DNA of 64,000 nucleotides from Promethearchaeota archaeon (GTDB lineage Archaea; Asgardarchaeota; Lokiarchaeia; Sigyniarchaeales; SOKP01): the NCBI GenBank assembly GCA_048940445.1, contig JBHLON010000010.1:139-64138 (forward strand), in the 5' to 3' direction. Below are positions 474-32,386 of this stretch, piece after piece. A model generated the notes under the pieces. It did not search any database and was not told where the DNA came from. It saw only the letters and a program-made list of their open reading frames with translations. The number at the start of each line of letters is the position of its first letter. Position 1 is the stretch's first letter. Both the position numbers and the translations under genes were made by a program.

Positions 474-1727
474 TTATACTATCCGAACCAGAGTTGTATG
501 GCAAAATTCACATCTAATCGCCCCCTTCTTTGAATCTTTTTGAGTTAAAGACTCTTTGAGTTGAATACCGCAATATGGACAATTTAATTCATGAATTTTG
601 GCTCTTAATTTTTCAAACAGCCATAGTGGAATCTCATTTTTGAAGAACCAATTTGGTAAGTTGCTTAAAAAGTTGGAATTCTCGAACACAATGTCTAGTT
701 CTTCATCATTAAGGTAATTCAAATATCCTTGATTGATTAGATATAAAACAACAGAAGGATAGCCACTTTCTAAACGTAAGGCAATTTCTTCTTTGAATAC
801 TTTATTAGCAAGGGGATCTCCAGCCTTTACAAGAGCCTTTAATAACGGAAAAGCTAAATTTCTGTGTAACAAATTTGAAGAGTAATTGTTTTCATACCAC
901 GCCTGAATGTTAGAGCAATGTGCCCAAAATTCAACTTCGGGAGAGATACTAAATTTAGAAGCCCCTTGTTGTTCCATTGAGGTATCTAAGATTTCTGCAG
1001 CTTCATCTATTGACTCAATCTTATCATAGTCTCTGATTTTATCAAGTTGAAGATTTAGCAGTAGATATTTGCATTGTCGAAATAGAGAGCCTCCCACATA
1101 TATATTTGTTTTTTCATTTTCCAATCTAAGCTTTAAGTAATTATTAATTATGAATTCTTTTCTTATATATACAAAGGGGTTCTGCTCCCCATTGCAATAC
1201 TGAAATATCATGTTTACCAAAGTTTGAAAAGCTTGGTTAACATTTTGTTCATTTTCAAGAGGAATTTCTGCGAATGCTGAAAGGTGATAGCTTTCTGCCA
1301 ATGATCTTCCTTGTTCCCATGATACTTCTCTTGTTTTATCTTTTGAATTAACTGATGAACCTAAGAGCATGATTGGGATGTCTCTGGTTCTTTGTCTTAT
1401 TAATCTGATATGATCTGCTAAGCAATCTAAAGATCCCGAATTCATGATATCATATAAAAATATAGCACCTAAAGCTCCACAAGAATACATTGGTATAAGA
1501 GATCTGAAGCGTTCTTGTCCTCCTACTAACCAAATCTGTAATTTGATCATCTTACCAGATGATTCTACCGATTTAACATGAAATTCTACACCAATTGTCA
1601 TTTCATAGTCTTCTTTAAAGACGTTATGACAATAATTTGCTTCCAGAAATTGTTTGCCAACAACCTCATCACCCATGATCATTATTTTATAAAGATAATC
1701 ATACATTGGCATTTTATGAATTTCCAA
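474..1727 (-). CDS. Rab-like small GTPase-fold protein with degenerate nucleotide-binding motifs, C-terminal helical domain and zinc ribbon
   Basis: 417 aa. The first ~170 aa align by eye to the paralog at 8323-9117 (YDYLYKIMIMGD, MTIGVEFHVK, KLQIW..GGQERF, GALGAIFLYD). G1 is GDEVVGKQ (no Ser/Thr) and G3 is WLVGGQE (Asp lost). NKxD is replaced by GSSVNSKD and SAK by AEIP. The C-terminus ends in CPYCG-x17-CEFC. Confidence 0.75.
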   Translation of the reverse strand: MEIHKMPMYDYLYKIMIMGDEVVGKQFLEANYCHNVFKEDYEMTIGVEFHVKSVESSGKMIKLQIWLVGGQERFRSLIPMYSCGALGAIFLYDIMNSGSLDCLADHIRLIRQRTRDIPIMLLGSSVNSKDKTREVSWEQGRSLAESYHLSAFAEIPLENEQNVNQAFQTLVNMIFQYCNGEQNPFVYIRKEFIINNYLKLRLENEKTNIYVGGSLFRQCKYLLLNLQLDKIRDYDKIESIDEAAEILDTSMEQQGASKFSISPEVEFWAHCSNIQAWYENNYSSNLLHRNLAFPLLKALVKAGDPLANKVFKEEIALRLESGYPSVVLYLINQGYLNYLNDEELDIVFENSNFLSNLPNWFFKNEIPLWLFEKLRAKIHELNCPYCGIQLKESLTQKDSKKGAIRCEFCHTTLVRIV

Positions 1728-1780: not shown

Positions 1781-4700
1781 TTATGAGTGTTCTGATAAGG
1801 GCAGAACAATTGATTTCTCAATAAGGGATTCAAGGGCTTTAATTACCAGATCTTTTTTCTTCTCATGAACCTGTTCGATTGCATCCTTTAAATAAAAGTC
1901 AGGCTTAACGTTGGTCATGGATATGATCACATTGAGAAGTCTTAGTTCCATTTTATTTAACTCTCCTTCTTGCTTTATTCGATTAATGTTTTTCATTGTA
2001 GTTAATTTAAAATATTCTTTATAATAGAGCTGTAAATGTTCATCTAAAAGCTGTGGCAATTTTTTATTAAATTCATCTAAGTCTCCATTAAAGGCTTCAA
2101 ATTTTTCTGAAAAGATTGAACTTATCGATAGTAGAAGTTCTGAGGTTTGAGCTTTTAGTCTTTCAGAAGCTTGTTTTTTTAGAATAAAAACAATTCTAAT
2201 ATCCTTATTTTCACATATGAATACATTAAAAAATCTAAAATCGAGACTCATCATTCTATCAATTCCACTTAGATTTTTTGGAGTCTCAATGGAATAGTCT
2301 TTAATGTGCTCATCCCCTACAATTCTTTCACCTAACATAGTAATTGCTTGAATAAAACCACCGAGCAAATCATCTTGAAATCTTTGTTCTGAGAAATAAC
2401 TTTTTGAATAAATCCCCAAACCGCTTCCTTCCATTGATAGCGTAATTGCTTCAATATTCATGACATCTCTATATTTTTGGGTTTTTGCGAGAAGCTCAGA
2501 TTCCTTTTTCCTTTTTCGAGGTAAAATAACATAACTTCTCAAGCCAATTATTCCAAATATCCCTATAATTCCAATTAATCCGAATACAACAAACCAAAGT
2601 GGAACATTAGATTGGGGTAATACTTCTTGTGTGATGACTATAACAAAGGAATATTCTTTAACCTCGTATAATGAATTTTCCTTCGAAATGGTTAAATTCA
2701 TTCGATAACTTCCTTGAATATTGACTGGAAGCCTCAATTCTAATTCATAAGTTCCAGAACCGAAGTAGTCAAAATAACCGTTACCAAATCTCCACGAGTA
2801 GAAAACTGTTGCATTTTCAATATAAATATGGGAATTGCTTTCAGTTAAGTTAACTTTAATTGTAATTACTTCTCCAACGAAAGCTTCAAGTGAGTCTTTA
2901 AAACCCATCGTATTTACAGTTATGGGTATATTATTAATGTTGACAATGATAGTTTTATAAATAGTAGTGTATCCTGCTTTTTGCAACTTAATTGTCGCTG
3001 CATAGGTCTTAACAGAAAGAGACGTTGTGTTTAAGCGCACTACAAATCCATATGAGTCGGTTATGACTTTATATGCGGCATCCCAGCTAACAGTACAATT
3101 TGCTCCAAGGATTAAGGTTCCTGAGCTTTCGACTGTGTAATTCACTCTAATATCATAAACTTCATTAAGATCCGCAAATATTGAAGTTCTATTTACATTG
3201 CCTTCCGCTTGGATTGGAAATATAGTCATAGCTATAAAACCTGTAGTCGCTTGATAGTTACTCTTATTAGCAAAAATTGTAATAGTATATGTCTCTATAA
3301 TTCCTTGTTTTGGCAAATCCCAAGTAGAGAAATTTAAGGAATACGTACCATTGTTATAATCTGTAATGAAATATGGGTTTTGCCAATTAGTACTTATATT
3401 TGCTTGCGAAATTAAGGTACCAGTAGAGGCTCCAGTTACATTTATCTGACAACTAATATAGTCATTTCCTAAACCACTAATCACTTTCTTTGGAGTCTCT
3501 AAAGCTAATGGTTGAGCTAAAATTTTTAGTTGAACTAAATTGATTGAGGTTTGATTCTCATAATAGCTTTTTGAGGCATTAAATGAAAAATAATAATTTC
3601 CAAGATCGAGAGAGTCTGTATTAATCTCACTGATATAAACGCCAGGTTGATAAGTCATCATTCCAAATGAATCGAATGTAGAACTATAGGTAATAGTCCC
3701 ATAAGCAATTGATGCATTTAGATCAGAATCGATAAATTTTACCTTTAGCAAAAAAGATTCTCCAGCAATCCGTTCTAAATAAGTATCTATTGCAATTAAA
3801 CTCGTTTTATGGATAACATTAAATTTCAACAATTTAATTCCAACTTGAGAGGCGTTTTGGTCGTGATCAGTCCATATAATCTGGGCAGAATATTTTCCAC
3901 ATGTTATATTTTCTACTCCAATAGTTATTTTCGAAAATTCGAATATTCCATCAGCGTCAACTAAAATCTTATCTTCTTGATACATCAAGGTTCCATTTGA
4001 ATAATAAATTTTTAAACTCGCGTTTGTTTCATCTAAATTTGGAATAGATGCTGTATTGATTGTTCCATTTACTTTCAAATCATCTAAGGCGTAGAAAGTA
4101 TTGTTCTGTGCCCAATAACTTCCCGTTCTCCTGTATATATTAGCTTCTTCAACATAATTTGGAGCATCCACTACTACCTTCCAAATTCCATTAGTTACAA
4201 TAGTATTAGGAATCTTTAAAGTTGAATTCCCATATCCAGCTGTCGCTAATACATCATTTATTTTATTAGCACCGTAAGGATTAATTAATTGAGTAACATT
4301 CCAATTAGTTGGTTTTGTTACATTCAAATAATAATCAGTAGAGTATGTACCGGGTATTATGATGGTAAAATACATAGTCCAAGTGGCTTTTGTGTTCGTA
4401 TCGACTTGAAATTCTGATCCTGTAAAACCTAATTGAGTTTTTGTTTGCTTTTGAGATGTGGCCTTTACAAAGAATTCAGTATTTAAGACTATTCTACCTG
4501 AAGAGTTAGAGCTGAAACCAAATAGGTGATATCTTCCATCAATATCACCTTCCCACATATTTTTAAGAGTGATGGTGCCTTCACCTGGACCGATATCGTT
4601 TATATTAGTCCAATCATCATTGGTGATATCATTGATATTGAGATTAATATCGGAAGGTTTTGGAAGGGTCGATAATGAAAGTGTAATATTATCATAAAAT

Positions 4701-5587
4701 AACTGTAAAAATCCAGATGGATTAATTCCAGAGTTTCCGAAATTCACTCCAAATTTTAAGGAAATTTTGCCTGGGAGAGCCATACCATATTGTTCTGGAG
4801 TGAACAATGGTATAGAATCTTGATGGATTTCATTATCGGCAATATTTGATAATTTCTCAGAAAAGGATTGTGAAATTCCATTAACATATAAAGAGAAAAA
4901 AACTTTAGCCCCCCCAAGCCCAGTCATCCAATTAATATCACTGTAAGATGCCCAATACTTAAAATTAATATCCCAATATTGATATGGAATTTGATATCTT
5001 GGTAAATTAAATGTATAATTTACATAAGAATTAAAATTGTTCCATGGTGTTCCTGGTTCATTAGCATCTTCAAATCTAATGTATATTGAGTCATTGTCTC
5101 CTTCTGGATTGTTATACCAACCAAAAGTGACATTCTGTGGGCGCTTAGTATAATTGCTCCAATGTGATAAATCTATACCTGTATTAAAGGTTTCATTTAC
5201 CCAAAGTGAATCATAATCATAAATGTTTGAAATATTACATATTACCTCATTAGCTTTCCAGTCTTCAGGAACAATTATAGATGCATTGTCATTATTGTTT
5301 AAATCTAATCCATTATTTGGAAAATCAGCAAAACCATATTCAGTTATATTTTGGGCTTTACCTATCCCAGAATATTGACTTATGGATATATCATTTAGTT
5401 TTAACTCTAAATCCATAGAAGGTGTATCTATTTGATTAAAATTGAAATCTTTCTTATAATTTTCCTCTGATTTCCATACAATTTGATTAGAGAGTAATAA
5501 AATTGATAAGTTTAAGGCAAGTAAAAAGATTACATTTATCCATTTCCTTGTTTTAAATTTCACTTTTTTCACAAGAATTAAGTACAA
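1781..5587 (-). CDS. large single-pass surface (glyco)protein with tandem beta-sandwich-type repeats and a cytoplasmic longin/roadblock-like tail
   Basis: 1268 aa. N-terminal signal anchor (WINVIFLLALNLSILLL). The ~950-aa N/T/Y-rich ectodomain has about 35 N-x-S/T sequons (hand count) and at least four ~98-aa repeats. One TM helix (LWFVVFGLIGIIGIFGIIGL) is followed by RKRKK and a 246-aa tail. The TTG start is uncertain by a few codons. Confidence 0.75.
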   Translation of the reverse strand: MYLILVKKVKFKTRKWINVIFLLALNLSILLLSNQIVWKSEENYKKDFNFNQIDTPSMDLELKLNDISISQYSGIGKAQNITEYGFADFPNNGLDLNNNDNASIIVPEDWKANEVICNISNIYDYDSLWVNETFNTGIDLSHWSNYTKRPQNVTFGWYNNPEGDNDSIYIRFEDANEPGTPWNNFNSYVNYTFNLPRYQIPYQYWDINFKYWASYSDINWMTGLGGAKVFFSLYVNGISQSFSEKLSNIADNEIHQDSIPLFTPEQYGMALPGKISLKFGVNFGNSGINPSGFLQLFYDNITLSLSTLPKPSDINLNINDITNDDWTNINDIGPGEGTITLKNMWEGDIDGRYHLFGFSSNSSGRIVLNTEFFVKATSQKQTKTQLGFTGSEFQVDTNTKATWTMYFTIIIPGTYSTDYYLNVTKPTNWNVTQLINPYGANKINDVLATAGYGNSTLKIPNTIVTNGIWKVVVDAPNYVEEANIYRRTGSYWAQNNTFYALDDLKVNGTINTASIPNLDETNASLKIYYSNGTLMYQEDKILVDADGIFEFSKITIGVENITCGKYSAQIIWTDHDQNASQVGIKLLKFNVIHKTSLIAIDTYLERIAGESFLLKVKFIDSDLNASIAYGTITYSSTFDSFGMMTYQPGVYISEINTDSLDLGNYYFSFNASKSYYENQTSINLVQLKILAQPLALETPKKVISGLGNDYISCQINVTGASTGTLISQANISTNWQNPYFITDYNNGTYSLNFSTWDLPKQGIIETYTITIFANKSNYQATTGFIAMTIFPIQAEGNVNRTSIFADLNEVYDIRVNYTVESSGTLILGANCTVSWDAAYKVITDSYGFVVRLNTTSLSVKTYAATIKLQKAGYTTIYKTIIVNINNIPITVNTMGFKDSLEAFVGEVITIKVNLTESNSHIYIENATVFYSWRFGNGYFDYFGSGTYELELRLPVNIQGSYRMNLTISKENSLYEVKEYSFVIVITQEVLPQSNVPLWFVVFGLIGIIGIFGIIGLRSYVILPRKRKKESELLAKTQKYRDVMNIEAITLSMEGSGLGIYSKSYFSEQRFQDDLLGGFIQAITMLGERIVGDEHIKDYSIETPKNLSGIDRMMSLDFRFFNVFICENKDIRIVFILKKQASERLKAQTSELLLSISSIFSEKFEAFNGDLDEFNKKLPQLLDEHLQLYYKEYFKLTTMKNINRIKQEGELNKMELRLLNVIISMTNVKPDFYLKDAIEQVHEKKKDLVIKALESLIEKSIVLPLSEHS

Positions 5588-6138: not shown

Positions 6139-6612
6139 ATGTTTCCACCACATTTGCCTGTGTTAATAATTGGTCTTTTAATTGCTGGTACTGTTGTTGT
6201 AGTAATTATAATTATATTGTTGATAATAGATTTATCTAAGAGGAGAAGGGTTTTAGCTTCTATTTCACAATCAAATTTAAATAATCTATTCGCATGTCCT
6301 AAATGTGGAACTATTGCTACTATTTATCTTATAAAAGTTGTCAGAGACTATATTTTAGTAAAGCAGAGATGCCCAATCCATGGAATAGGACATTCTCTAA
6401 TTCCAACAAGATTAAAAGATGATTCTATGCCCTATTTCCGAGATGCAATATTTCGATGTTTTAAATGTGGACAAAAAGCTAATTTATTTCACGAAAAATA
6501 CTCAGGACCCTGGGCTTTGATCTCAGTAGATTGCCCAACTCATGGAATAAAAACCTATAGAATATGGCACTCAGTTTATGAAGAAATTACAAAAGGTAAA
6601 ACCGATAATTAG
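6139..6612 (+). CDS. membrane-anchored protein with two tandem CxxCG...CPxHG zinc-ribbon-like modules
   Basis: 157 aa. N-terminal TM helix (LPVLIIGLLIAGTVVVVIIIILLII) followed by KRRR. It then carries CPKCG-x21-CPIHG and CFKCG-x22-CPTHG, an internal duplication. Confidence 0.55.
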   Translation: MFPPHLPVLIIGLLIAGTVVVVIIIILLIIDLSKRRRVLASISQSNLNNLFACPKCGTIATIYLIKVVRDYILVKQRCPIHGIGHSLIPTRLKDDSMPYFRDAIFRCFKCGQKANLFHEKYSGPWALISVDCPTHGIKTYRIWHSVYEEITKGKTDN

Positions 6613-6675: not shown

Positions 6676-7368
6676 CTAAGATTTGTTAGCGGAGTTTATC
6701 TTTAACCTTCTTGCTCCATAGGCTTGAAAGAAAAAGCATGCCAACATCGTATAAATGACCACTTTTTGTCCTATTGCAAATCTAGGAGTGATGATTGGAG
6801 AATCCACATCTAAAAACATCATTATAATAAAAATGAATAACACCACTCCTAATAGCGCATAGATAATGGCATAAGTATTAGGATATTCTTTATTAATAAT
6901 AATAGCAACACTAAATAAAATCGTTAAGGGCAACCCAATAAAAAATGCAAACATACCAAATGTTAAATGGATATTCATCAATAGGTCTGCTGGTGTTACA
7001 CTTGCTCCTATCAACATTATGCTTAAAAAGAGTCCCGCTACAGATCCTGCGATGCAAAACCATCTCGATTCTTTCAGTCCCCTAAATAGATTAGGCACAG
7101 CTAGGAAATATGGGATTAATAGGGCACCCATAAAGAATAAAGAAATATTGTAAATAACACATGATATAAGATTAGACTGTCCAGAATAAGCATAAAGTCT
7201 TCCTAAATCGCTTAATATGTTTTCAAAGAAAGAATAACCTGGAGAAGAAGGATTGCTAATAGTACCTCCCGTATAGAAAAACATTGCAATTGTAGAAAAG
7301 ACAAGTGATTGTATTGAACCTATCATCGCTAAAATATATGCAATATTTCTCCAATTTTTGGTAGTCAT
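6676..7368 (-). CDS. multi-pass membrane protein (possibly DUF998-like)
   Basis: 230 aa with about six hydrophobic helices. The motif FENILSDLG after helix 1 resembles DUF998 as I remember it. The family call is weak. Confidence 0.55.
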   Translation of the reverse strand: MTTKNWRNIAYILAMIGSIQSLVFSTIAMFFYTGGTISNPSSPGYSFFENILSDLGRLYAYSGQSNLISCVIYNISLFFMGALLIPYFLAVPNLFRGLKESRWFCIAGSVAGLFLSIMLIGASVTPADLLMNIHLTFGMFAFFIGLPLTILFSVAIIINKEYPNTYAIIYALLGVVLFIFIIMMFLDVDSPIITPRFAIGQKVVIYTMLACFFFQAYGARRLKINSANKS

Positions 7369-7471: not shown

Positions 7472-8344
7472 TTATTCTCTTTCAAAGGAATTTTGAATAT
7501 TACAAATTGAAAAGCCTAATTTCTTATATGTGTGAACAGCAGCATCATTCTCTACTCTTACCGTGATTAAGCACTCCTCTTTTTCTTTAAAAACAGCTTT
7601 CAATACAGAAGAGACTAATGAACTAGCTAATCCTCTATTTCTATAATCTGAATGTGTTCCAACGACCGTTATATATCCCACTTTTTGATACATCCATAAG
7701 CTAGTAATACATACCAACTTCTCTTTCTCAATAATGCCAAACCAAATATTATTTTCATCCATTAAGTTATCATCTAAACTATGATTACCCCAAAATATAG
7801 GATCTGCATTTCTCATGAACAAGACAATCTCTTCTTTATTGCTTTCCTTTAAAGTTTCATATGGATATTTTTCGTAATCCTTTTGTTCTCCTTTTTTCAT
7901 ATCCATACGGTACATTACAATTTCTTTTTTATAATTAGGAAAGAATTTTGCTATAATCGGCTTATGATGTTCAAAACCGGTTATTGAAATTGGGTTGTAA
8001 TTCTCCTCATTCAATAAAAATTCCAAACTTTCATTCGATCCTCTCAATTGAAGCCTGCGATCTTTCCACATTAGGGTCATTCCTTGAATCTTATCATTAA
8101 CATCTAATGCTAAGAAAATTTCAGTATCTTTAGGGTATTGAACATAATCAGCATGGAAGAAAAAATATTCCGCAAAGTTATCTTTAATGAAATCATAAAA
8201 TAATGGTTCATTAACTGGAGTTAGATGAACTGATCGTAATCTTTCATGTATCATATTTCCTCTTAAGAAATGAGATGCTAAAAGAATTTCGGATTTCTTA
8301 TTTATCAAAAATAAGCTAAATTCTATGCTGCCCTTTTTCTGCAA
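7472..8344 (-). CDS. GNAT family N-acetyltransferase
   Basis: 290 aa. The C-terminal acetyl-CoA motif A is VVGTHSDYRNRGLASSLVSSVL, followed by VENDAAVHTYKKLGF. The annotated ATG overlaps the upstream GTPase stop by 22 nt. An alternative Met lies 30 codons downstream. Confidence 0.8.
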   Translation of the reverse strand: MQKKGSIEFSLFLINKKSEILLASHFLRGNMIHERLRSVHLTPVNEPLFYDFIKDNFAEYFFFHADYVQYPKDTEIFLALDVNDKIQGMTLMWKDRRLQLRGSNESLEFLLNEENYNPISITGFEHHKPIIAKFFPNYKKEIVMYRMDMKKGEQKDYEKYPYETLKESNKEEIVLFMRNADPIFWGNHSLDDNLMDENNIWFGIIEKEKLVCITSLWMYQKVGYITVVGTHSDYRNRGLASSLVSSVLKAVFKEKEECLITVRVENDAAVHTYKKLGFSICNIQNSFERE

Positions 8345-9117
8345 TTATGCGTAAATCTTTCCGAGATCGTGAGTTCCTTACCGCAATATGGACAATAGTT
8401 TTTACTCTCTGGTTTATTTACATGTGTTTGTCTTTCAAGTTCTGAGCTCGGAGGCCTAAAGATAGAAGATAAAGAGTTTCTTTCATTAAGTGGCAGTCTG
8501 GGTTTAGATTCAATTGTAGATGGTTCTTTTAAAGTGATCCTTCCAGGACTAAATACAGTTTCATTAGCTATTAATTTGTCGGGTACGCCCTCCCCAATCA
8601 TAAGACAAGTCATGATATAAAAGCAATCTCCTACTCCATCGCCAGTTTTAGCCGAAGTTTCCATATAATAAAGGTTAGCATTCCTAGTAAAACGATTAAT
8701 TTCACTAATAGATACAGTTCTTTCGTCTGATAAATCACTTTTATTGCCTACGAGTAATAGAGGGATATTAGCGGCAGTGTTAGCCCGTATTTCTTGGATC
8801 CATCGAGGAAGATGCTCAAAACTAGCATAGTTAGTAAGATCAAAAACTAAAACAGCTCCTAGAGCTCCTCGATAATATATAGGCCTGATTGTACTAAATC
8901 TTTCTTGGCCTCCTGTATCCCATAGTTGCAGTTTGCATCTAATTACACCTTCATATGTGTCTATAGGAATTGTCTTAACATGAAAATCTACGCCAATTGT
9001 CATCTTATAGTCTTCAGTAAATAGGCCAGTTGAAAATCTTACGGTTAATGCTGTCTTACCGACTCCACCATCCCCTATAGCAATTGTCTTAAAAAGATAA
9101 TCATAATTGTCTGCCAT
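8323..9117 (-). CDS. Rab-like small GTPase with C-terminal zinc knuckle
   Basis: 264 aa. G1 GDGGVGKT, switch I TIGVDF, G3 KLQLWDTGGQERF, YYRGALGA, LVFDLT, G4 GNKSD, G5 TSAK. An ~80-aa S/P-rich linker leads to CPYCG-x11-HNC at the C-terminus. There is no CAAX or CC motif. Confidence 0.9.
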   Translation of the reverse strand: MADNYDYLFKTIAIGDGGVGKTALTVRFSTGLFTEDYKMTIGVDFHVKTIPIDTYEGVIRCKLQLWDTGGQERFSTIRPIYYRGALGAVLVFDLTNYASFEHLPRWIQEIRANTAANIPLLLVGNKSDLSDERTVSISEINRFTRNANLYYMETSAKTGDGVGDCFYIMTCLMIGEGVPDKLIANETVFSPGRITLKEPSTIESKPRLPLNERNSLSSIFRPPSSELERQTHVNKPESKNYCPYCGKELTISERFTHNCRKRAA

Positions 9118-9915: not shown

Positions 9916-10314
9916 ATGGCAGTTTTTTGTAAAAGATGTGGGAGAGTTTTGAAATCAGCTAGAAGTATTAAATTAGGTTATGGACCCACATGTTATAGAA
10001 TAAAAACATTAAATGAAAATCCTGTTAATATTGAAGAGGAAATTAAATTCTTAAAAATAGAAGTAAAAATGGTAAAAAAAATACTTAAAGAATTAAGATC
10101 TTCTGAGTTTATACCTAACCAAACTTCTCCAATAATAAAGATAAAAAAAGATGAAAGCCTCCCTGAAAGAGAAAACAATAGGGGTCAAATGAGAGAAGTG
10201 ATTCAAGAATTAAAGACTTGTTTTCAAAACTGTAATGGAGATGTAAGAAACCTATTAAAACCAATCCAAATTGAAACAAATCTTAATGAAACGTCTCATT
10301 TGGCAATAGTATAA
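9916..10314 (+). CDS. small protein with N-terminal CxxCGR...GYGPTC motif (DUF6011-like) and coiled-coil region
   Basis: 132 aa. MAVFCKRCGRVLKSARSIKLGYGPTCYRIK matches the C-x2-C-G-R...S...G-x-G-P-x-C pattern I associate with phage-borne DUF6011. The rest of the protein is charged and helical. Confidence 0.5.
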   Translation: MAVFCKRCGRVLKSARSIKLGYGPTCYRIKTLNENPVNIEEEIKFLKIEVKMVKKILKELRSSEFIPNQTSPIIKIKKDESLPERENNRGQMREVIQELKTCFQNCNGDVRNLLKPIQIETNLNETSHLAIV

Positions 10315-10451: not shown

Positions 10452-13400
10452 TTGAGAATTTTAGTATTAAGCCACCGGAATCCATTTTTTCCTCCCTATA
10501 TTTTTCAAAAAGTGCCAGAAACAATTGAACGGGACGACCTTAAACAAGTTCCAACATTAATAGAGCTTTATGAAGATGGATTTTTTATCCATATGTTTGG
10601 AACTTTTAAGACAGCTAATCTATTGTTTGATATTCCGAGTAAATATTCAAGAACAAAAAAGGAGCGCCTTTTAATATCAATTATAGTTGACAATAAGAGC
10701 AAAATTAAAGCCACATTAGCTCAAGAGCTTTTAGAGGGTTTCGTTGAAGAATTTAAAAAAATTAAAAAGGTTTACAAAGCATTTTATGTAGACTCTCAAG
10801 TGTATCAAGGAGATCCAGATAAATTAGAAAAAATCAAAACACTTTTAAATACTTTTAACGCAACTTTTCCGGAAGAACAAGTTATATTTGAACAAAAAGA
10901 AGCAAAAGTATTAATATTTGGGCTTTCGCTAGCAGGAAAAACGACTATCATTAGAACAAGAAGAAAAACGGTATCAAAAACGATATTTCCAACTATAAAT
11001 GTAGACATTTCTAGAATCTTAGTAAATAATGTATCGTTATTAACTTATGACACTCCAGGTCAGGTAAAATTTAAGGAAATATGGAAACCGTATTTGAAAG
11101 GGCAAGATGGTCTAATTTTCGTATTAGACGTTTCAGATAATTTAAAGTTTCCGGATGCCCGTAAATTGTTGCATGAAGTAGTAGGTATACCAGAGTTGAG
11201 TGAACTACCTCTTCTTATTCTATTTAATAAGATTGATTTAGAAGAACCAAACGTCAGTGATCTAGTAGAAGCTATGGGATTGGAAAAACTCGAAAAAATG
11301 CCAATGAAGTACTTTTTAACAAGTGGAGTTAATAACATAAATGTTGATGAAGCGTTTAATTGGCTTTCACTTAAAATAGCAGAAAGAGTTGAAACGTATA
11401 CTCCAAGAAGGGAGATAGGGATAATATTTTGTCGATGGGATGAGAATCTAGGAGTTAAGATTGAAGCTGTGTACCCTGAAGATGCTTTCGAGAATCCGGA
11501 ACTGATTTCTGTAAAAAGCTTTTCAATTTCACAATATGTTTTTGGAGGAGAGGAATTTAAGCGAGCCATGGTAATTTTACCTTTTCCTCATTTGAATTCA
11601 AATGCTGCGATTTATTTTGATTCAGTATCTGATGAGAGTATTAGAGGGGGTTTATTACCTTTATCATTAATAATTTATTACAATGATAGGATTCCTAAAA
11701 GCATTATTAACCAATTCAATCATTTCGTTCTCAAACAATTTGAAATTATAAAAAATAATTATTTAAATAATGTCCAGGTATTAGAACTTCTTAAAGAAAC
11801 TCATAGTACCATAATTCATCAAATTGATGCGTATAAACCCTCAATTGAAGCGCTCAAGATTGCAGAATTACGATATGAGGTTTTATTCAAAGCAGCTCGA
11901 GACGCGATTTTAATAATTGATAAAAAATCGGGGATTATAATAGATGCAAATAAGCAAGCAGAAGAATTATTCCAACGCCCTTTTGAGGATTGTATTGGAT
12001 ACCATTCAAGCCAATTATTAAGTGATATTATTAACATCGATTTTAATGAGGAAATATTTGATGAACTTAACAATCCATTTCCTTTAAGATTAGACGTTGT
12101 TGATAATTCAGGCAACCTTATTCCTGTTGAAATAAGTGTAAGTGAAGTCCAAATGGGAGGGCAAGTCTTTATTCAATACATAATTCGAGACATTAGTAAA
12201 AGAATGGAAGCTGAAATTAAATTAAAGAATTCTGAAATTAGGTATCGTCATCTTTTTAAAGATTCACCTTTCTTTATACTTTTAATTGATCCAAATGGTT
12301 CAATTGTTGATTGTAATCCTGCTTTAGAAAAAGCTTTAGGATATACAAGAGAAGAGTTAATGGGAAGAAAGTTTGTAGACCTTTCACTTATTCATCAAAA
12401 TTATCTTATAGAGGTTCTTAAAAGATTTAAAAAAGAAGAAAGAAGTAGAATTTTTCCACCATTAGAAATTCAACTTTTTCAAAAAGATGGGAATCTCATT
12501 TGGGTAAATATGCAATCGTCTTTTGTAGAGATTGGGAATGAAACGTTTTACCAAATTATTTGCCATGATGTAACAGAACAGAAAAGAACAGAACAGGATC
12601 TCAAGAAAATTTCTAAATTACAAGCTATAATTGCGAGAATTATTTCAAGATTTGTTGGTATAAAAGATTTCAATCAAGCTATTAATGATTCTCTTAGAGA
12701 ATTTGGAGAACTAATTAATGCAGCACGAGCTTATATTTACATTTTTAGTAATACGTATAATTTCATGAAGAGACATTATTTATGGTATGGTAAATTGCTT
12801 TATCCCCAAATTGAATTACCTCAATTTATATCAATCAACAACTTTCCATGGGTAATTGAGAAATTAGATACTTCTGAATATTTTTATGTTAATGATATTA
12901 CTATCCTTCCTGATCAGGCAAAAAATTTCAAAATATTTCTTGGAGATCAAAAAATTGAAAACTTTTTGCTATTTTCAATAAGAATTGATGACCATTTAGA
13001 AGGTATAATGTGTTTTGACAATCTTTCAGAAAAAGACTATTGGAATGAAGAAAATCTTGAAATATTGGGAATTTTTTCTGATATCCTTAAAAATGCAATA
13101 TTGCGTAAGTTAGCAGAAGACAATTTGCGTATTAGTGAAGAATCTTTTCATGATGAGTTTGATAGAGAATACTTTTATAAAGAGCTCTTTGTAAATGATA
13201 TGAATAATATCATTAGAAATCTTCAATCATCAATAGATGATTATATCAAACCAATTAATCAGATAGCTACAAAGCTACCAAATGAACTATTAGATAATGT
13301 GAAAAGTCAATGTATAAACGCACAACTCTTAATCTACATAATACAAAAATTAACGTTGCTTAACGAAACTAAAATTGTAATTGAAAAGGTAGATCTAAAT

Positions 13401-13823
13401 AGAGTGATTGATGATGTCATAGATTTCATTACCAGTACCTATACTAACAAAAAAATAAATATACTTGTTGAACATCCAAATGAGCATTTATACGTAAAGG
13501 CTGATAAGTTCCTAATAGATATTTTTGTTAATTTACTTATTAGCTCGATTAGATATAGCAAAAAACCTTCAATTGAATTTAAAATTGTTATCAATAGAAG
13601 TCAAGAAAATAACATAAATTATGTTAAAATTAAATTCATAGATTATAAGAAAGAGATATTAAATGTAGAGAAAAACTTGATTTTTAAGAAAGAAATAAAA
13701 TATGACAGCAAAATTAAAGAAATAATTTTAGGTTTTCTCTTAGTTGAACGCATCTTAAATAATTATAAAGGGAGAATATGGGTAGAGAACTACAATTTTG
13801 TCATTTCAATTCCTGAAGCATAA
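10452..13823 (+). CDS. multidomain Arf-like GTPase / PAS-PAS-GAF / degenerate histidine-kinase fusion protein
   Basis: 1123 aa with a TTG start. The Arf/Arl-type motifs are GLSLAGKTT, PTINV, YDTPGQ, FNKIDL and NWLSLKI (aa ~150-310). PAS-like segments start at LRYEVLFKAARDAILIID and IRYRHLFKDSPFFILLIDPNG. A GAF-like segment spans aa ~720-885. The C-terminal HK-like core has N-box VNLLISSIRYS but no H-box His and no DxGxG. Confidence 0.85.
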   Translation: MRILVLSHRNPFFPPYIFQKVPETIERDDLKQVPTLIELYEDGFFIHMFGTFKTANLLFDIPSKYSRTKKERLLISIIVDNKSKIKATLAQELLEGFVEEFKKIKKVYKAFYVDSQVYQGDPDKLEKIKTLLNTFNATFPEEQVIFEQKEAKVLIFGLSLAGKTTIIRTRRKTVSKTIFPTINVDISRILVNNVSLLTYDTPGQVKFKEIWKPYLKGQDGLIFVLDVSDNLKFPDARKLLHEVVGIPELSELPLLILFNKIDLEEPNVSDLVEAMGLEKLEKMPMKYFLTSGVNNINVDEAFNWLSLKIAERVETYTPRREIGIIFCRWDENLGVKIEAVYPEDAFENPELISVKSFSISQYVFGGEEFKRAMVILPFPHLNSNAAIYFDSVSDESIRGGLLPLSLIIYYNDRIPKSIINQFNHFVLKQFEIIKNNYLNNVQVLELLKETHSTIIHQIDAYKPSIEALKIAELRYEVLFKAARDAILIIDKKSGIIIDANKQAEELFQRPFEDCIGYHSSQLLSDIINIDFNEEIFDELNNPFPLRLDVVDNSGNLIPVEISVSEVQMGGQVFIQYIIRDISKRMEAEIKLKNSEIRYRHLFKDSPFFILLIDPNGSIVDCNPALEKALGYTREELMGRKFVDLSLIHQNYLIEVLKRFKKEERSRIFPPLEIQLFQKDGNLIWVNMQSSFVEIGNETFYQIICHDVTEQKRTEQDLKKISKLQAIIARIISRFVGIKDFNQAINDSLREFGELINAARAYIYIFSNTYNFMKRHYLWYGKLLYPQIELPQFISINNFPWVIEKLDTSEYFYVNDITILPDQAKNFKIFLGDQKIENFLLFSIRIDDHLEGIMCFDNLSEKDYWNEENLEILGIFSDILKNAILRKLAEDNLRISEESFHDEFDREYFYKELFVNDMNNIIRNLQSSIDDYIKPINQIATKLPNELLDNVKSQCINAQLLIYIIQKLTLLNETKIVIEKVDLNRVIDDVIDFITSTYTNKKINILVEHPNEHLYVKADKFLIDIFVNLLISSIRYSKKPSIEFKIVINRSQENNINYVKIKFIDYKKEILNVEKNLIFKKEIKYDSKIKEIILGFLLVERILNNYKGRIWVENYNFVISIPEA

Positions 13824-18221: not shown

Positions 18222-18776
18222 ATGTATGATGCAATCTTCAAAATTGTTGTTTTTGGTGATGTTGGGTGCGGGAAAACAACCTTAACTCAGCGTTTTTTAA
18301 CAAAAAACTTCATCCCAAATACCTTTAAAACAATTGGAGTCGACTTTAGTACCACGAGCTTCATGGTTGATAGATTTAACGTTAAGTTAATGATCTGGGA
18401 TTTTGGTGGAGAAGAGAGGTTTAGGTTCATCTTTCCTCAATATGTGCTTGGAGCAATGGGCGGAATTATGATGTATGATATAACAAATCAATCTTCACTC
18501 TATCATTTAAGTGATTGGTTATCGATCATTAGTGATACGAAGCAGATATTTCCAATCATTTTAGTTGGTGGAAAGTCTGATTTAGAGAGCAAGAGAGAAG
18601 TATTATTCAATAAAGGCAGGAAGAGCGCAAAATTAATGGGATTGGATGACTTTATAGAGTGTTCTAGCAAAACAGGGGTACATGTAGAGAATGTGTTTGT
18701 TAGTTTAACTAGATTAATGTTATGTAATATTAATATTAAGGGAATCCCTGGTTCATTTCTTATTCCCAATATATGA
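18222..18776 (+). CDS. Rab/Ras-like small GTPase (divergent G3 and G4)
   Basis: 184 aa. G1 GDVGCGKT, switch I TIGVDF, G3 WDFGGEE (Glu at the catalytic Gln position), G4 GGKSD (Asn to Gly), G5 SSK. There is no C-terminal Cys motif. Confidence 0.85.
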   Translation: MYDAIFKIVVFGDVGCGKTTLTQRFLTKNFIPNTFKTIGVDFSTTSFMVDRFNVKLMIWDFGGEERFRFIFPQYVLGAMGGIMMYDITNQSSLYHLSDWLSIISDTKQIFPIILVGGKSDLESKREVLFNKGRKSAKLMGLDDFIECSSKTGVHVENVFVSLTRLMLCNINIKGIPGSFLIPNI

Positions 18777-31753: not shown

Positions 31754-32386
31754 ATGAGATTCAAAAAGAGAAAGAAACTTAAAAATAGATTAAAGGAAGA
31801 AGAACCTCATTTTGAAATACAACCTTTAATCGAGCATAAAGATAAAGAAAAGCATCGTTTTGAGCCTCACTTTTCATTCAAAGTCTTATTAGTAGGGCAT
31901 AATGATTCAGGAAAGATAAGTTATCTAGAAGACTTTGGAAATTCATGGTTTAAGGCTAATACAAAGTTATCAATTGGAATTAGTTTTGAAATAAAAGAGA
32001 TCAAAATAGAAGACGTTAATATAAAGTTGCAAATCTGGGACTTAGCTATAGAAGAACGTTGGAGAGATTTAGTTCCACTTTACTGTAGAGGTGCATTGGG
32101 AGCTATTTTAATGTTTGAAATGTCAAAACCAGAAACATTGTATAAATTACCAAAGTGGATTCGGATCATAAAGGATAATACTGCAAATATTCCTTTGATC
32201 TTAATGGGGAATATTGATCTCCCAAATAACCTAAATCAAGTTTCTAAAGAGCAAGCTTTAGATTTTGTTAGATCTGAACAATTAAATGGGTATTTCGAAT
32301 GTAATGTTCTTACGGGCAAGAATTTAAATAATGCATTTGAAAGTTTAACGAGACTAATAATTAAAAATTATGAAAACAAGACATAA
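31754..32386 (+). CDS. Rab-like GTPase-fold protein with lost catalytic motifs (pseudo-GTPase) and basic N-terminal extension
   Basis: 210 aa. G1 GHNDSGKI, G3 WDLAIEE, G4 GNIDL, G5 region NVLTGK. It retains the family core KLQIWD..RGALGAILMFE. The 40-aa N-terminal extension is K/R/E-rich with EPHF twice. Confidence 0.7.
   Translation: MRFKKRKKLKNRLKEEEPHFEIQPLIEHKDKEKHRFEPHFSFKVLLVGHNDSGKISYLEDFGNSWFKANTKLSIGISFEIKEIKIEDVNIKLQIWDLAIEERWRDLVPLYCRGALGAILMFEMSKPETLYKLPKWIRIIKDNTANIPLILMGNIDLPNNLNQVSKEQALDFVRSEQLNGYFECNVLTGKNLNNAFESLTRLIIKNYENKT

Follow-up and report, generated by a model that had tools for sequence, protein, structure and literature searches.

A diverged copy of a portable, probably zinc-binding module at the C-terminus of a Rab-like small GTPase from a Promethearchaeota archaeon

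Archaeal proteins with all five Rab family motifs (RabF1 to RabF5) and without prenylatable cysteines were described by Surkont and Pereira-Leal in 2016 (PMC4915359), and the Rab-likes of Asgard archaea were confirmed structurally in 2024 by Tran et al. (PMC10933270). They were described without an extended C-terminal region, polybasic stretch or membrane-association signal (PMC4915359; PMC10933270), and no homologues of REP or RabGGT have been reported in Asgard archaea (PMC10933270). Akil et al. (2022, PMC9433394) reported that the gelsolins Loki2DGel and MKD1-2DGel terminate in a domain with the pattern (Cys-X-X-Cys)2 that may bind zinc. This domain was exclusively C-terminal, occurred also on “unrelated multi-domain proteins” and as stand-alone small proteins, and was not found outside Loki; no binding to F-actin was seen, and some cellular feature or complex was proposed as its target (PMC9433394). 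The present analysis concerns the gene of a Rab-like small GTPase on a 64,000-nucleotide stretch of contig JBHLON010000010.1 from a Promethearchaeota archaeon, referred to as the window, and the peptide module in which this GTPase ends. The window has a G+C content of about 30%.

The GTPase matches the Pfam Ras family over residues 10 to 169 (E = 9e-52). All G motifs were located: G1 GDGGVGKT at residues 15–22, G2 T40, G3 DTGGQ at 67–71, G4 GNKSD at 124–128 and G5 TSAK at 154–157. The RabF motifs IGVDF (41–45), KLQLWDTGGQE (62–72), RFSTIR (73–78), YYRGA (81–85) and LVFDLT (90–95) align column for column with those of Rab8A. With G1 to G5 in a Ras fold, the protein is a small GTPase of the Ras superfamily, and it carries the motifs RabF1 to RabF5 of the Rab family in the eukaryotic sense. 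Rab8A was the best match among solved structures (E = 9e-44), and Rab30, Rab1A/B, Rab43, Ypt1 and Rab11 were matched as well, with E values of about 1e-43. An AlphaFold2 model had a mean predicted local distance difference test score (pLDDT) of 80.9, mostly above 90 in the G domain. Foldseek aligned it with Rab8a, Rab1b and Ypt32 at target-normalised TM scores of 0.84–0.88 and 41–44% identity; the G domain dominates in this search of the full model, which is uninformative on the tail. The nearest homologues in the database, 56–83% identical, all came from Asgard metagenome-assembled genomes (MAGs) carrying Promethearchaeota, Hod-, Hermod-, Thor- or Heimdallarchaeota labels, and the listed eukaryotic Rabs and multi-G-domain proteins were 38–47% identical. 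The Rab motifs are due to homology rather than chance. Judged by the motif set, the predicted product is a Rab-like small GTPase with its catalytic features intact, from an Asgard archaeon of the Lokiarchaeia type (Promethearchaeota).

The end of the protein, ...THNCRKRAA, contains none of the prenylatable cysteine arrangements (CC, CXC, CCXX, CAAX). An archaeal protein with five RabF motifs, a G domain nearest to Rab8/Rab1/Rab11 and no prenylation site corresponds to the archaeal Rab-likes (PMC4915359, PMC10933270), so that Rab motifs without prenyl cysteines in an Asgard GTPase are already known. These features had been noted in an earlier, sequence-only reading of this DNA, which described a 264-residue product with G1 to G5, all five Rab family motifs and, in place of a C-terminal CC, CxC or CAAX, a linker rich in serine and proline; each of these was found as stated. 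The window GTPase differs from the described archaeal Rab-likes, with their short C-terminus, in an extension of 90 residues beyond the G domain that ends in a predicted zinc ribbon and a basic end. Like eukaryotic Rab8, Rab1 and Ypt1 it has, besides the G domain and the RabF motifs, a hypervariable extension at the C-terminus in which a targeting device can be accommodated. Unlike these Rabs, it would carry a putative zinc-binding peptide tail instead of a lipid; it also has a four-residue insertion in the beta2-beta3 hairpin, and Asgard archaea are not known to possess a REP, GDI or RabGGTase system (PMC10933270).

The C-terminal sequence of the GTPase is ...YCPYCGKELTISERFTHNCRKRAA, and its end with the ligand pattern is ...NSLSSIFRPPSSELERQTHVNKPESKNYCPYCGKELTISERFTHNCRKRAA. 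The linker (residues 176–240) consists of serine and proline for 26% and includes VFSPGRITL, the conserved end of the G-domain family. The cysteines and histidine are spaced C-x2-C-x11-H-x-C, equivalently CPYCG-x10-HNC; the Cys/His end had been recognised before, as CPYCG-x11-HNC, with the count off by one. A local hidden Markov model (HMM) of homologous tails matched residues 212–264 with 59 bits. The ligand columns are invariant in tail alignments A3 and A5, and the IF.PP of the linker aligns with invariant IF/PP columns of these tails. In the AlphaFold2 model the ribbon is a hairpin plus a short helix with a pLDDT of 85–88. Since the site aligns with the C-x2-C-x10-C-x2-C ribbons of homologous tails, it is classed here from its sequence as a zinc-ribbon variant and not, as had been proposed, as a zinc knuckle of the retroviral type.

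By alignment, the end of the extension was shown to be a diverged copy of what appears as a lineage-specific, portable C-terminal module. The module has a length of about 60 residues. It opens with an acidic run, which is followed by the motif FP[YF]PYIFKPPxPP[DG]D and a spacer of 25–30 residues, and closes with a C4 or C2HC zinc ribbon and a short basic stretch. When 1.84 billion representative proteins were searched with the tail profile A3, 175 clusters matched, with E<=1e-10 for 115, and the match reached the C-terminus, or ended a few residues short of it, in every case. Of 172 carriers, 86 have C2HC ligands and 79 the pattern C-x2-C-x10-C-x2-C. In 138 of them, 25–30 residues separate the proline motif from the first cysteine, and the last ligand is followed by a basic end in 72%, with a median of 5 residues and a net charge of about +2 past the last ligand. 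The last ligand of the window GTPase also lies 5 residues from the C-terminus.

A Pfam census covering 108 carriers placed the module on Roadblock/LC7 (Robl_LC7) proteins (18), Ras-type GTPases (15), receiver domains (Response_reg, 7), Gelsolin (5), LAMTOR5 (3), RagA (Gtr1_RagA, 2) and, once each, on LAMTOR3 (MAPKK1_Int), Profilin, RING and HisKA proteins. A Zn_Ribbon_1 hit at E<=0.001 was present in 43 of the 108. The module also occurs on Arf-type GTPases, and genes encoding only the tail are real (locus L035). No transmembrane-like segment was present in 111 of 118 carriers. Tail-bearing GTPases are polyphyletic and scattered among tail-less close relatives, and the module has therefore been repeatedly gained and lost. 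Three more distant homologues of the window GTPase (P0043, P0074 and P0075) end in CQYCG[KR][EK]LTK[ED][ED]Q.[ST]HSCK[KE]KP, with FPYPYIF.PPKPPDDFAMA ahead of this Cys/His end. Judged by these alignments, the module is a real, conserved and portable unit, probably zinc-binding, located where eukaryotic Rabs bear their lipid-anchor signal. In a metagenome protein of 513 residues (P0245), a Ras-family fragment and a gelsolin repeat share one polypeptide with the tail module, which suggests a GTPase-gelsolin fusion.

The tail could not be assigned to a known Pfam family, as every hit was below threshold: Zn_Ribbon_1 (PF13240) at 16.8 bits against a gathering threshold of 25, zf_UBZ at 11.4 bits against 25.6 and zf-BED at 16.6 bits, below its curated cut-off. 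The two latter hits, weak as they are, raise the idea that the ribbon is UBZ-like or BED-like and binds ubiquitin-like proteins or nucleic acid, linking the GTPase to other pathways. The C-x2-C...H-x-C pattern resembles that of C2HC ubiquitin-binding fingers, yet UBZ4 has H-x3-C where the tail has H-x-C, a plain C4 ribbon is used by half of the family, and the carriers are cytoskeletal and signalling proteins rather than DNA or RNA proteins. With all hits under the curated cut-offs, this explanation is considered very improbable.

The properties of the module correspond to those of the domain of Akil et al., with about 60 residues, CxxC pairs, a strictly C-terminal position, an occurrence on gelsolins, unrelated multi-domain proteins and stand-alone proteins, and a restriction to the Loki type. 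From the published description and the five gelsolin-bearing carriers, the two are very probably the same. The published pattern is (CxxC)2, whereas the window tail is C2HC, as in half of the carriers, and alignable with C4. Attachment to Rab-like, Arf and Rag GTPases, to Roadblock/LAMTOR-like proteins and to receiver domains is not spelled out in that study, nor are the FPYPYIFKPP motif and the fixed spacing, and no paper connecting the Zn domain to Rab-like GTPases or Roadblock proteins was found. Other Asgard Rab-likes (P0058-P0063, P0103) likewise end in a small C-terminal C-x2-C-x10-C-x2-C ribbon of the Zn_Ribbon_1 type after a long disordered tail. They differ from the window GTPase in tails of 250–300 residues with APPVPEP repeats and without FPYPYIFKPP. 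Among the Rab-like paralogues P0004-P0021 and P0058-P0063, C-terminal tails of 150–300 residues were observed, with repeated EFEAPPVPEP units and the short, conserved motifs YKPKT[IV]PF[ST]S, PAPAPEGFQ and DSL[VM]DYMP, then a lysine-rich end; some of them end in a C4 zinc ribbon.

In one of the related loci (L001, 6868-7407, + strand) a Roadblock/LC7 protein of 179 residues (Pfam E = 4.3e-15) bears the full module, the Roadblock domain being followed by the tail DDFPYPYIFKPPGPGD...YCQYCGKEILKEEQFHHNCRKKPK. Its gene sits two genes downstream of an orthologue of the window GTPase that lacks the zinc site. Among the open reading frames (ORFs) of the window and of the 34 loci compared with it, this protein and the window GTPase were the only tail bearers to turn up. 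Further clusters of tail genes with genes for GTPases or Roadblock proteins were seen in L041/42, L043 and L044. In L041 (2831-5219), a tail-only ORF, a Ras-family GTPase and a tail-bearing protein of 315 residues occur in succession; in L043 (3688-4650), a tail-only gene is followed by an Arf-like GTPase whose cut C-terminus starts the same tail; and in L044 (334-2823), a tail-bearing GTPase precedes a Roadblock/LAMTOR3-like gene. Small GTPases and Roadblock/LC7 proteins also occur together in MglA/MglB and Rag/Ragulator, and the common tail in L001 and L044 suggests, by analogy with these systems, a switch-regulator pair that may be brought to one site. Unlike in those systems, the window GTPase has no adjoining gene for an MglB-type partner.

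We favour, with a probability of roughly 0.55, the reading that the tail is a docking or localisation tag shared by GTPase modules, and that the acetyltransferase (GNAT) gene and the DUF998-like gene next to the GTPase gene are separate, unlinked neighbours. A docking or targeting role fits because the module is also found on Roadblock-type regulators and on other soluble signalling and cytoskeletal proteins. The tag would be bipartite, with the aromatic-proline motif and the zinc ribbon both read by one common putative receptor, for which a protein or a protein complex at a particular site in the cell is the most likely candidate. Such a receptor would bring switches, Roadblock-type regulators and actin regulators together in one place, and the tail would play the part that the prenylated hypervariable tail plays for eukaryotic Rabs. 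The sequence-only reading had suggested that the zinc module may replace a lipid anchor by docking to a partner. The first half of that suggestion agrees with a conserved portable module in the anchor position that is present on Roadblock-type regulators as well; the candidate partners it named, the products of window 6139-6612 and 6676-7368, are not conserved beside the gene, even in L001, and only the second recurs beside the GNAT and GTPase genes, in a single locus (L040).

The tail might instead bind the membrane directly. The interfacial aromatics of FPYPYIF and the zinc-stabilised basic end would then form an amphitropic anchor, a protein substitute for the prenyl group and the polybasic region. 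The frequent basic end past the last ligand, the conserved aromatic-rich motif, the position of the tail at that of the Rab/Ras hypervariable region and the otherwise soluble nature of nearly all carriers are in line with this idea. However, an acidic run precedes the motif and many acidic residues lie in the spacer and ribbon (KEEQ/EEE), which disfavours anionic lipid, and the window copy has lost most of the aromatics. Asgard proteins tested in eukaryotic cells did not localise to membranes, in a set that included no tail-bearing GTPases (PMC10933270). Because the proline motif is near-invariant, its spacing fixed and its surroundings acidic, which resembles recognition by protein rather than by lipid, a protein receptor is favoured and direct membrane binding is judged unlikely.

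Several observations weigh against the docking tag. The tail of the window GTPase departs from the full motif layout: the acidic run and PYPY are missing, only SSIFRPP is left, and the spacer measures 18 residues against about 28; in the nearest orthologue, that of L040, it is about 10 residues. The confidence of the AlphaFold2 model is low at residues 215–237 (pLDDT below 50). The syntenic orthologue in L001 (P0002, 240 residues) keeps FPSIFKPP and has no zinc site, and no remnant of the ribbon was seen in the sequence past its stop codon. The module may thus be decaying in the orthogroup of the window GTPase. GTPase genes are dense in these genomes, so chance could explain part of the clustering of tail genes with them, and L035, one of six tail-gene contexts, shows no such clustering. 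The equation with the Loki2DGel Zn domain, moreover, is drawn from the published description and the gelsolin-bearing carriers.

Taken to its end, the decay would make of the tail in this protein a remnant under erosion that has hardly any function or none, and the GTPase would work like the tail-less members of its subfamily. The nearest G-domain relatives (79–83% identity) indeed have no zinc site, and homologues of 196 residues end directly after VFSPGxITL, in accordance with the shortened spacers, the loss of PYPY and the acidic run, and the loss of the ribbon in L001. Against this stands the conservation between the window and L040, both of which retain CPYCG...HNC with the four ligands, the pattern CxYCG..L...E.F.H.C and the basic end in spite of divergence elsewhere in the tail. 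IF.PP is retained in all three orthologues (window, L040 and L001), and the ribbon is confidently folded by AlphaFold2. A functionless tail therefore appears rather improbable. As the module is shortened, has lost PYPY and the acidic run and has lost the ribbon in L001, the window copy may be weakened or re-purposed, with an altered affinity or role. The sequence-only reading had made conservation of the C-terminal Cys/His residues in orthologues a condition for its proposal; they are conserved in L040 and across the module family, and absent from the syntenic L001 orthologue.

The positions of the GTPase, its parts and its neighbours are listed below.

Table. Positions of the GTPase gene, its predicted parts and the adjoining genes in the window.
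Feature	Position	Strand	Description	Basis
Rab-like small GTPase gene	8323..9117	-	264 residues plus stop codon	ORF, Pfam Ras, Rab8A match
G domain, residues 1-175	8593..9117	-	G1-G5 and RabF1-RabF5	Motif positions, Rab8A alignment, pLDDT mostly >90
Linker, residues 176-241	8395..8592	-	Low complexity	Composition; pLDDT <50 at residues 215-237
SIFRPP, residues 218-223	8449-8466	-	Putative tail-motif remnant, within linker	
Predicted C2HC zinc-ribbon variant and basic end	8326..8394	-	C242, C245, H257, C259; basic end RKRAA	Tail HMM, invariant ligand columns, AlphaFold2
Intergenic gap	8255..8322	-	68 nucleotides from GTPase stop to true GNAT start; T-rich stretch, AGAGGA before ATG	Sequence, N-termini of homologues
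Tandem-GNAT acetyltransferase gene	7472..8254	-	260 residues; degenerate N-terminal GNAT-like half and catalytic C-terminal half	Pfam, AlphaFold2, Foldseek
DUF998-like polytopic membrane protein gene	6676..7368	-	230 residues; in the same position only in L040	Pfam DUF998 below cut-off

The gene downstream of the GTPase encodes an acetyltransferase, as noted before, with Pfam matches to Acetyltransf_1 (E = 2.8e-13) and FR47 (E = 5e-13) that indicate an acetyl-CoA-binding core. The two genes had been described as overlapping, the GTPase stop lying 22 nucleotides (nt) inside the GNAT gene. This holds only for the mechanical ORF 7472..8344, which begins at the upstream TTG 8344. Of its homologues (98 proteins, mostly of 260 residues, all source-labelled ones from Asgard MAGs), 27 were placed in alignment A1. 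There, 21 begin at the column of window Met31 (ATG 8254, with AGAGGA 5 nt upstream), three begin five residues further in and three longer ones have unrelated, non-conserved extensions. The start of the GNAT was therefore placed at 8254, which leaves a gap of 68 nt, and overlapping genes or translational coupling were rejected. The AlphaFold2 model (pLDDT 89) has a tandem-GNAT fold, and Foldseek matched Legionella VipF (1e-14), Mycobacterium MAB_4324 and the mycothiol synthase MshD. In sequence, the C-terminal catalytic core alone resembles RimI, archaeal Nat, Naa50 and Naa20, and this weakly (PDB, E 1e-7 to 1e-5). An assignment of the protein to N-terminal acetyltransferases of the RimI/Ard1/Naa type acting on the GTPase is not supported, as it reached 46 bits with the TIGR01575 rimI equivalog model (cut-off 86.4) and has no conserved linkage to a GTPase gene.

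The third gene in the row matches DUF998 (PF06197) with 27 bits (E = 4e-6), under the gathering threshold of 30 bits, so the earlier designation as a DUF998-like membrane protein can be kept only with this reservation. In the window, GTPase, GNAT and DUF998-like genes lie on one strand, 103 nt separating the latter two. They could form a functional unit in which the GNAT acetylates the GTPase, for instance at its N-terminus, or its partner, and so controls targeting. For a comparison of gene order, the GNAT alignment was scanned against one genome per species, giving 34 loci, and four metagenome contigs with the closest GNATs were added; loci were compared by tblastn and ORF clustering. In L040 (GNAT 83% identical), the C-terminus of the GTPase, the GNAT and a DUF998-like protein, a downstream fragment nearly identical to that of the window, occur in the same order. 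In L001 (GNAT 70%), the orthologous GTPase lies upstream and a Roadblock protein takes the place of DUF998 downstream; the neighbouring Arf-PAS-kinase gene is 85% identical to that of the window. In L037 (GNAT 76%), a transmembrane protein lies upstream and a different GTPase downstream, and in three Promethearchaeum loci the GNAT is a distant one (36–38%) and is accompanied by another small GTPase, which is transcribed divergently. Unrelated neighbours were found in the other loci, about 30 in number, so that the GNAT family itself is conserved across Promethearchaeota and its surroundings essentially are not.

Thus, of about 38 loci, the window, L040 and L001 are the only ones with the orthologous GTPase upstream of the GNAT, and DUF998 follows only in the window and L040. 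Because small-GTPase genes are dense, with five in the 64 kb of the window, a gene picked at random would be expected to have a GTPase as its neighbour in roughly 10–16% of cases; a GTPase beside the GNAT was observed in about 3 of 30 lineages, which matches this expectation. Three related genomes with the GTPase upstream of the GNAT, short gaps on one strand, a catalytic core closest to N-terminal acetyltransferases such as RimI, archaeal Nat, Naa50 and Naa20, and the GTPase paralogues adjoining the GNAT in L037 and Promethearchaeum all speak for a functional unit. These paralogues, however, are different ones in different orientations and at chance level; the genes do not overlap, DUF998 is not retained even in L001, and the GNAT belongs to the tandem class of VipF, MshD and MAB_4324, which act on diverse substrates. 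A functional unit is hence regarded as quite improbable. The sequence-only reading had treated the GNAT as tightly coupled to the GTPase and had named conservation of the GTPase-GNAT-membrane protein order as a check on its proposal. A conserved operon of this order was rejected on the basis of the 34 genome loci and four metagenome contigs, the full order being found again only in L040 and in part in L001. We conclude that the order is a recent, local arrangement and that nothing links the acetyltransferase to the GTPase.

Some further observations were made on these loci. A DUF6011 protein (E = 9.4e-11) is encoded at window 9916-10314 (+), and its orthologue in L011 (5052-5450) adjoins the GNAT in divergent orientation without an intervening GTPase, a layout that looks like the result of an insertion or loss of the GTPase gene. 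Promethearchaeum syntrophicum MK-D1 (L026, 5129-6744) has two tandem copies of the distant GNAT with a divergent small GTPase of 153 residues upstream; L023 and L025 show this layout with a single GNAT copy. Convergent with the DUF998-like gene, window 6139-6612 (+) encodes a protein of 157 residues with an N-terminal transmembrane helix and two CxxCG...CPxHG units, which was not found in any of the related loci.

Among the other genes of the window, 474-1727 (-) encodes a protein of 417 residues whose Rab-like G domain is degenerate (P-loop GDEVVGKQ, WLVGGQE), whose middle part is helical and whose C-terminus bears a zinc ribbon, CPYCG...CEFC; its orthologue of 412 residues is the GTPase directly downstream of the GNAT in L037. 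The protein of 1123 residues encoded at 10452-13823 (+), the orthologue of which in L001 was mentioned above as the Arf-PAS-kinase gene, has an N-terminal region to which no fold could be given, together with an Arf-like G domain (E = 1.9e-33), two PAS domains, a GAF domain and a histidine-kinase ATPase. Two more small-GTPase genes at 18222-18776 (+) and 31754-32386 (+) bring the total to five; in the latter the P-loop is degenerate (GHNDSGKI) and the N-terminus carries a basic extension. A protein of 1268 residues without a Pfam match (1781-5587, -) has a large part rich in N-glycosylation motifs, probably extracellular, one transmembrane helix near residues 985–1010 and then a cytoplasmic C-terminal domain. 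DNA runs matching the window stretch were mangrove and sediment metagenomes, and no RNA runs matched. A scan of the window for bacterial promoters and terminators gave counts equal to those of shuffled sequence, the bacterial models being uninformative for an archaeon.

How Asgard small GTPases find their cellular place is an open question, as they have neither prenylation signals nor the machinery. A module common to GTPases, probable Roadblock regulators and actin regulators offers a concrete handle on it. The tail is small and easily expressed, and can be used as bait for the receptor and as a tag for the site of action. The correction of the GTPase-acetyltransferase operon idea also matters, which would otherwise misdirect experiments. 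So far the Zn module has had only passing mention, in connection with gelsolins; the valuable lead is that it goes together with GTPase and Roadblock modules. Tentatively, and well short of even odds, Lokiarchaeia-type Asgards may use a portable, zinc-stabilised peptide “zip code” that recruits Rab-, Arf- and Rag-like switches, Roadblock/LAMTOR-like regulators, receiver domains, gelsolin and profilin to one site, with tail-only proteins as competitors or adaptors; such a code might be a forerunner or an analogue of the membrane identity that eukaryotes encode with lipid anchors.

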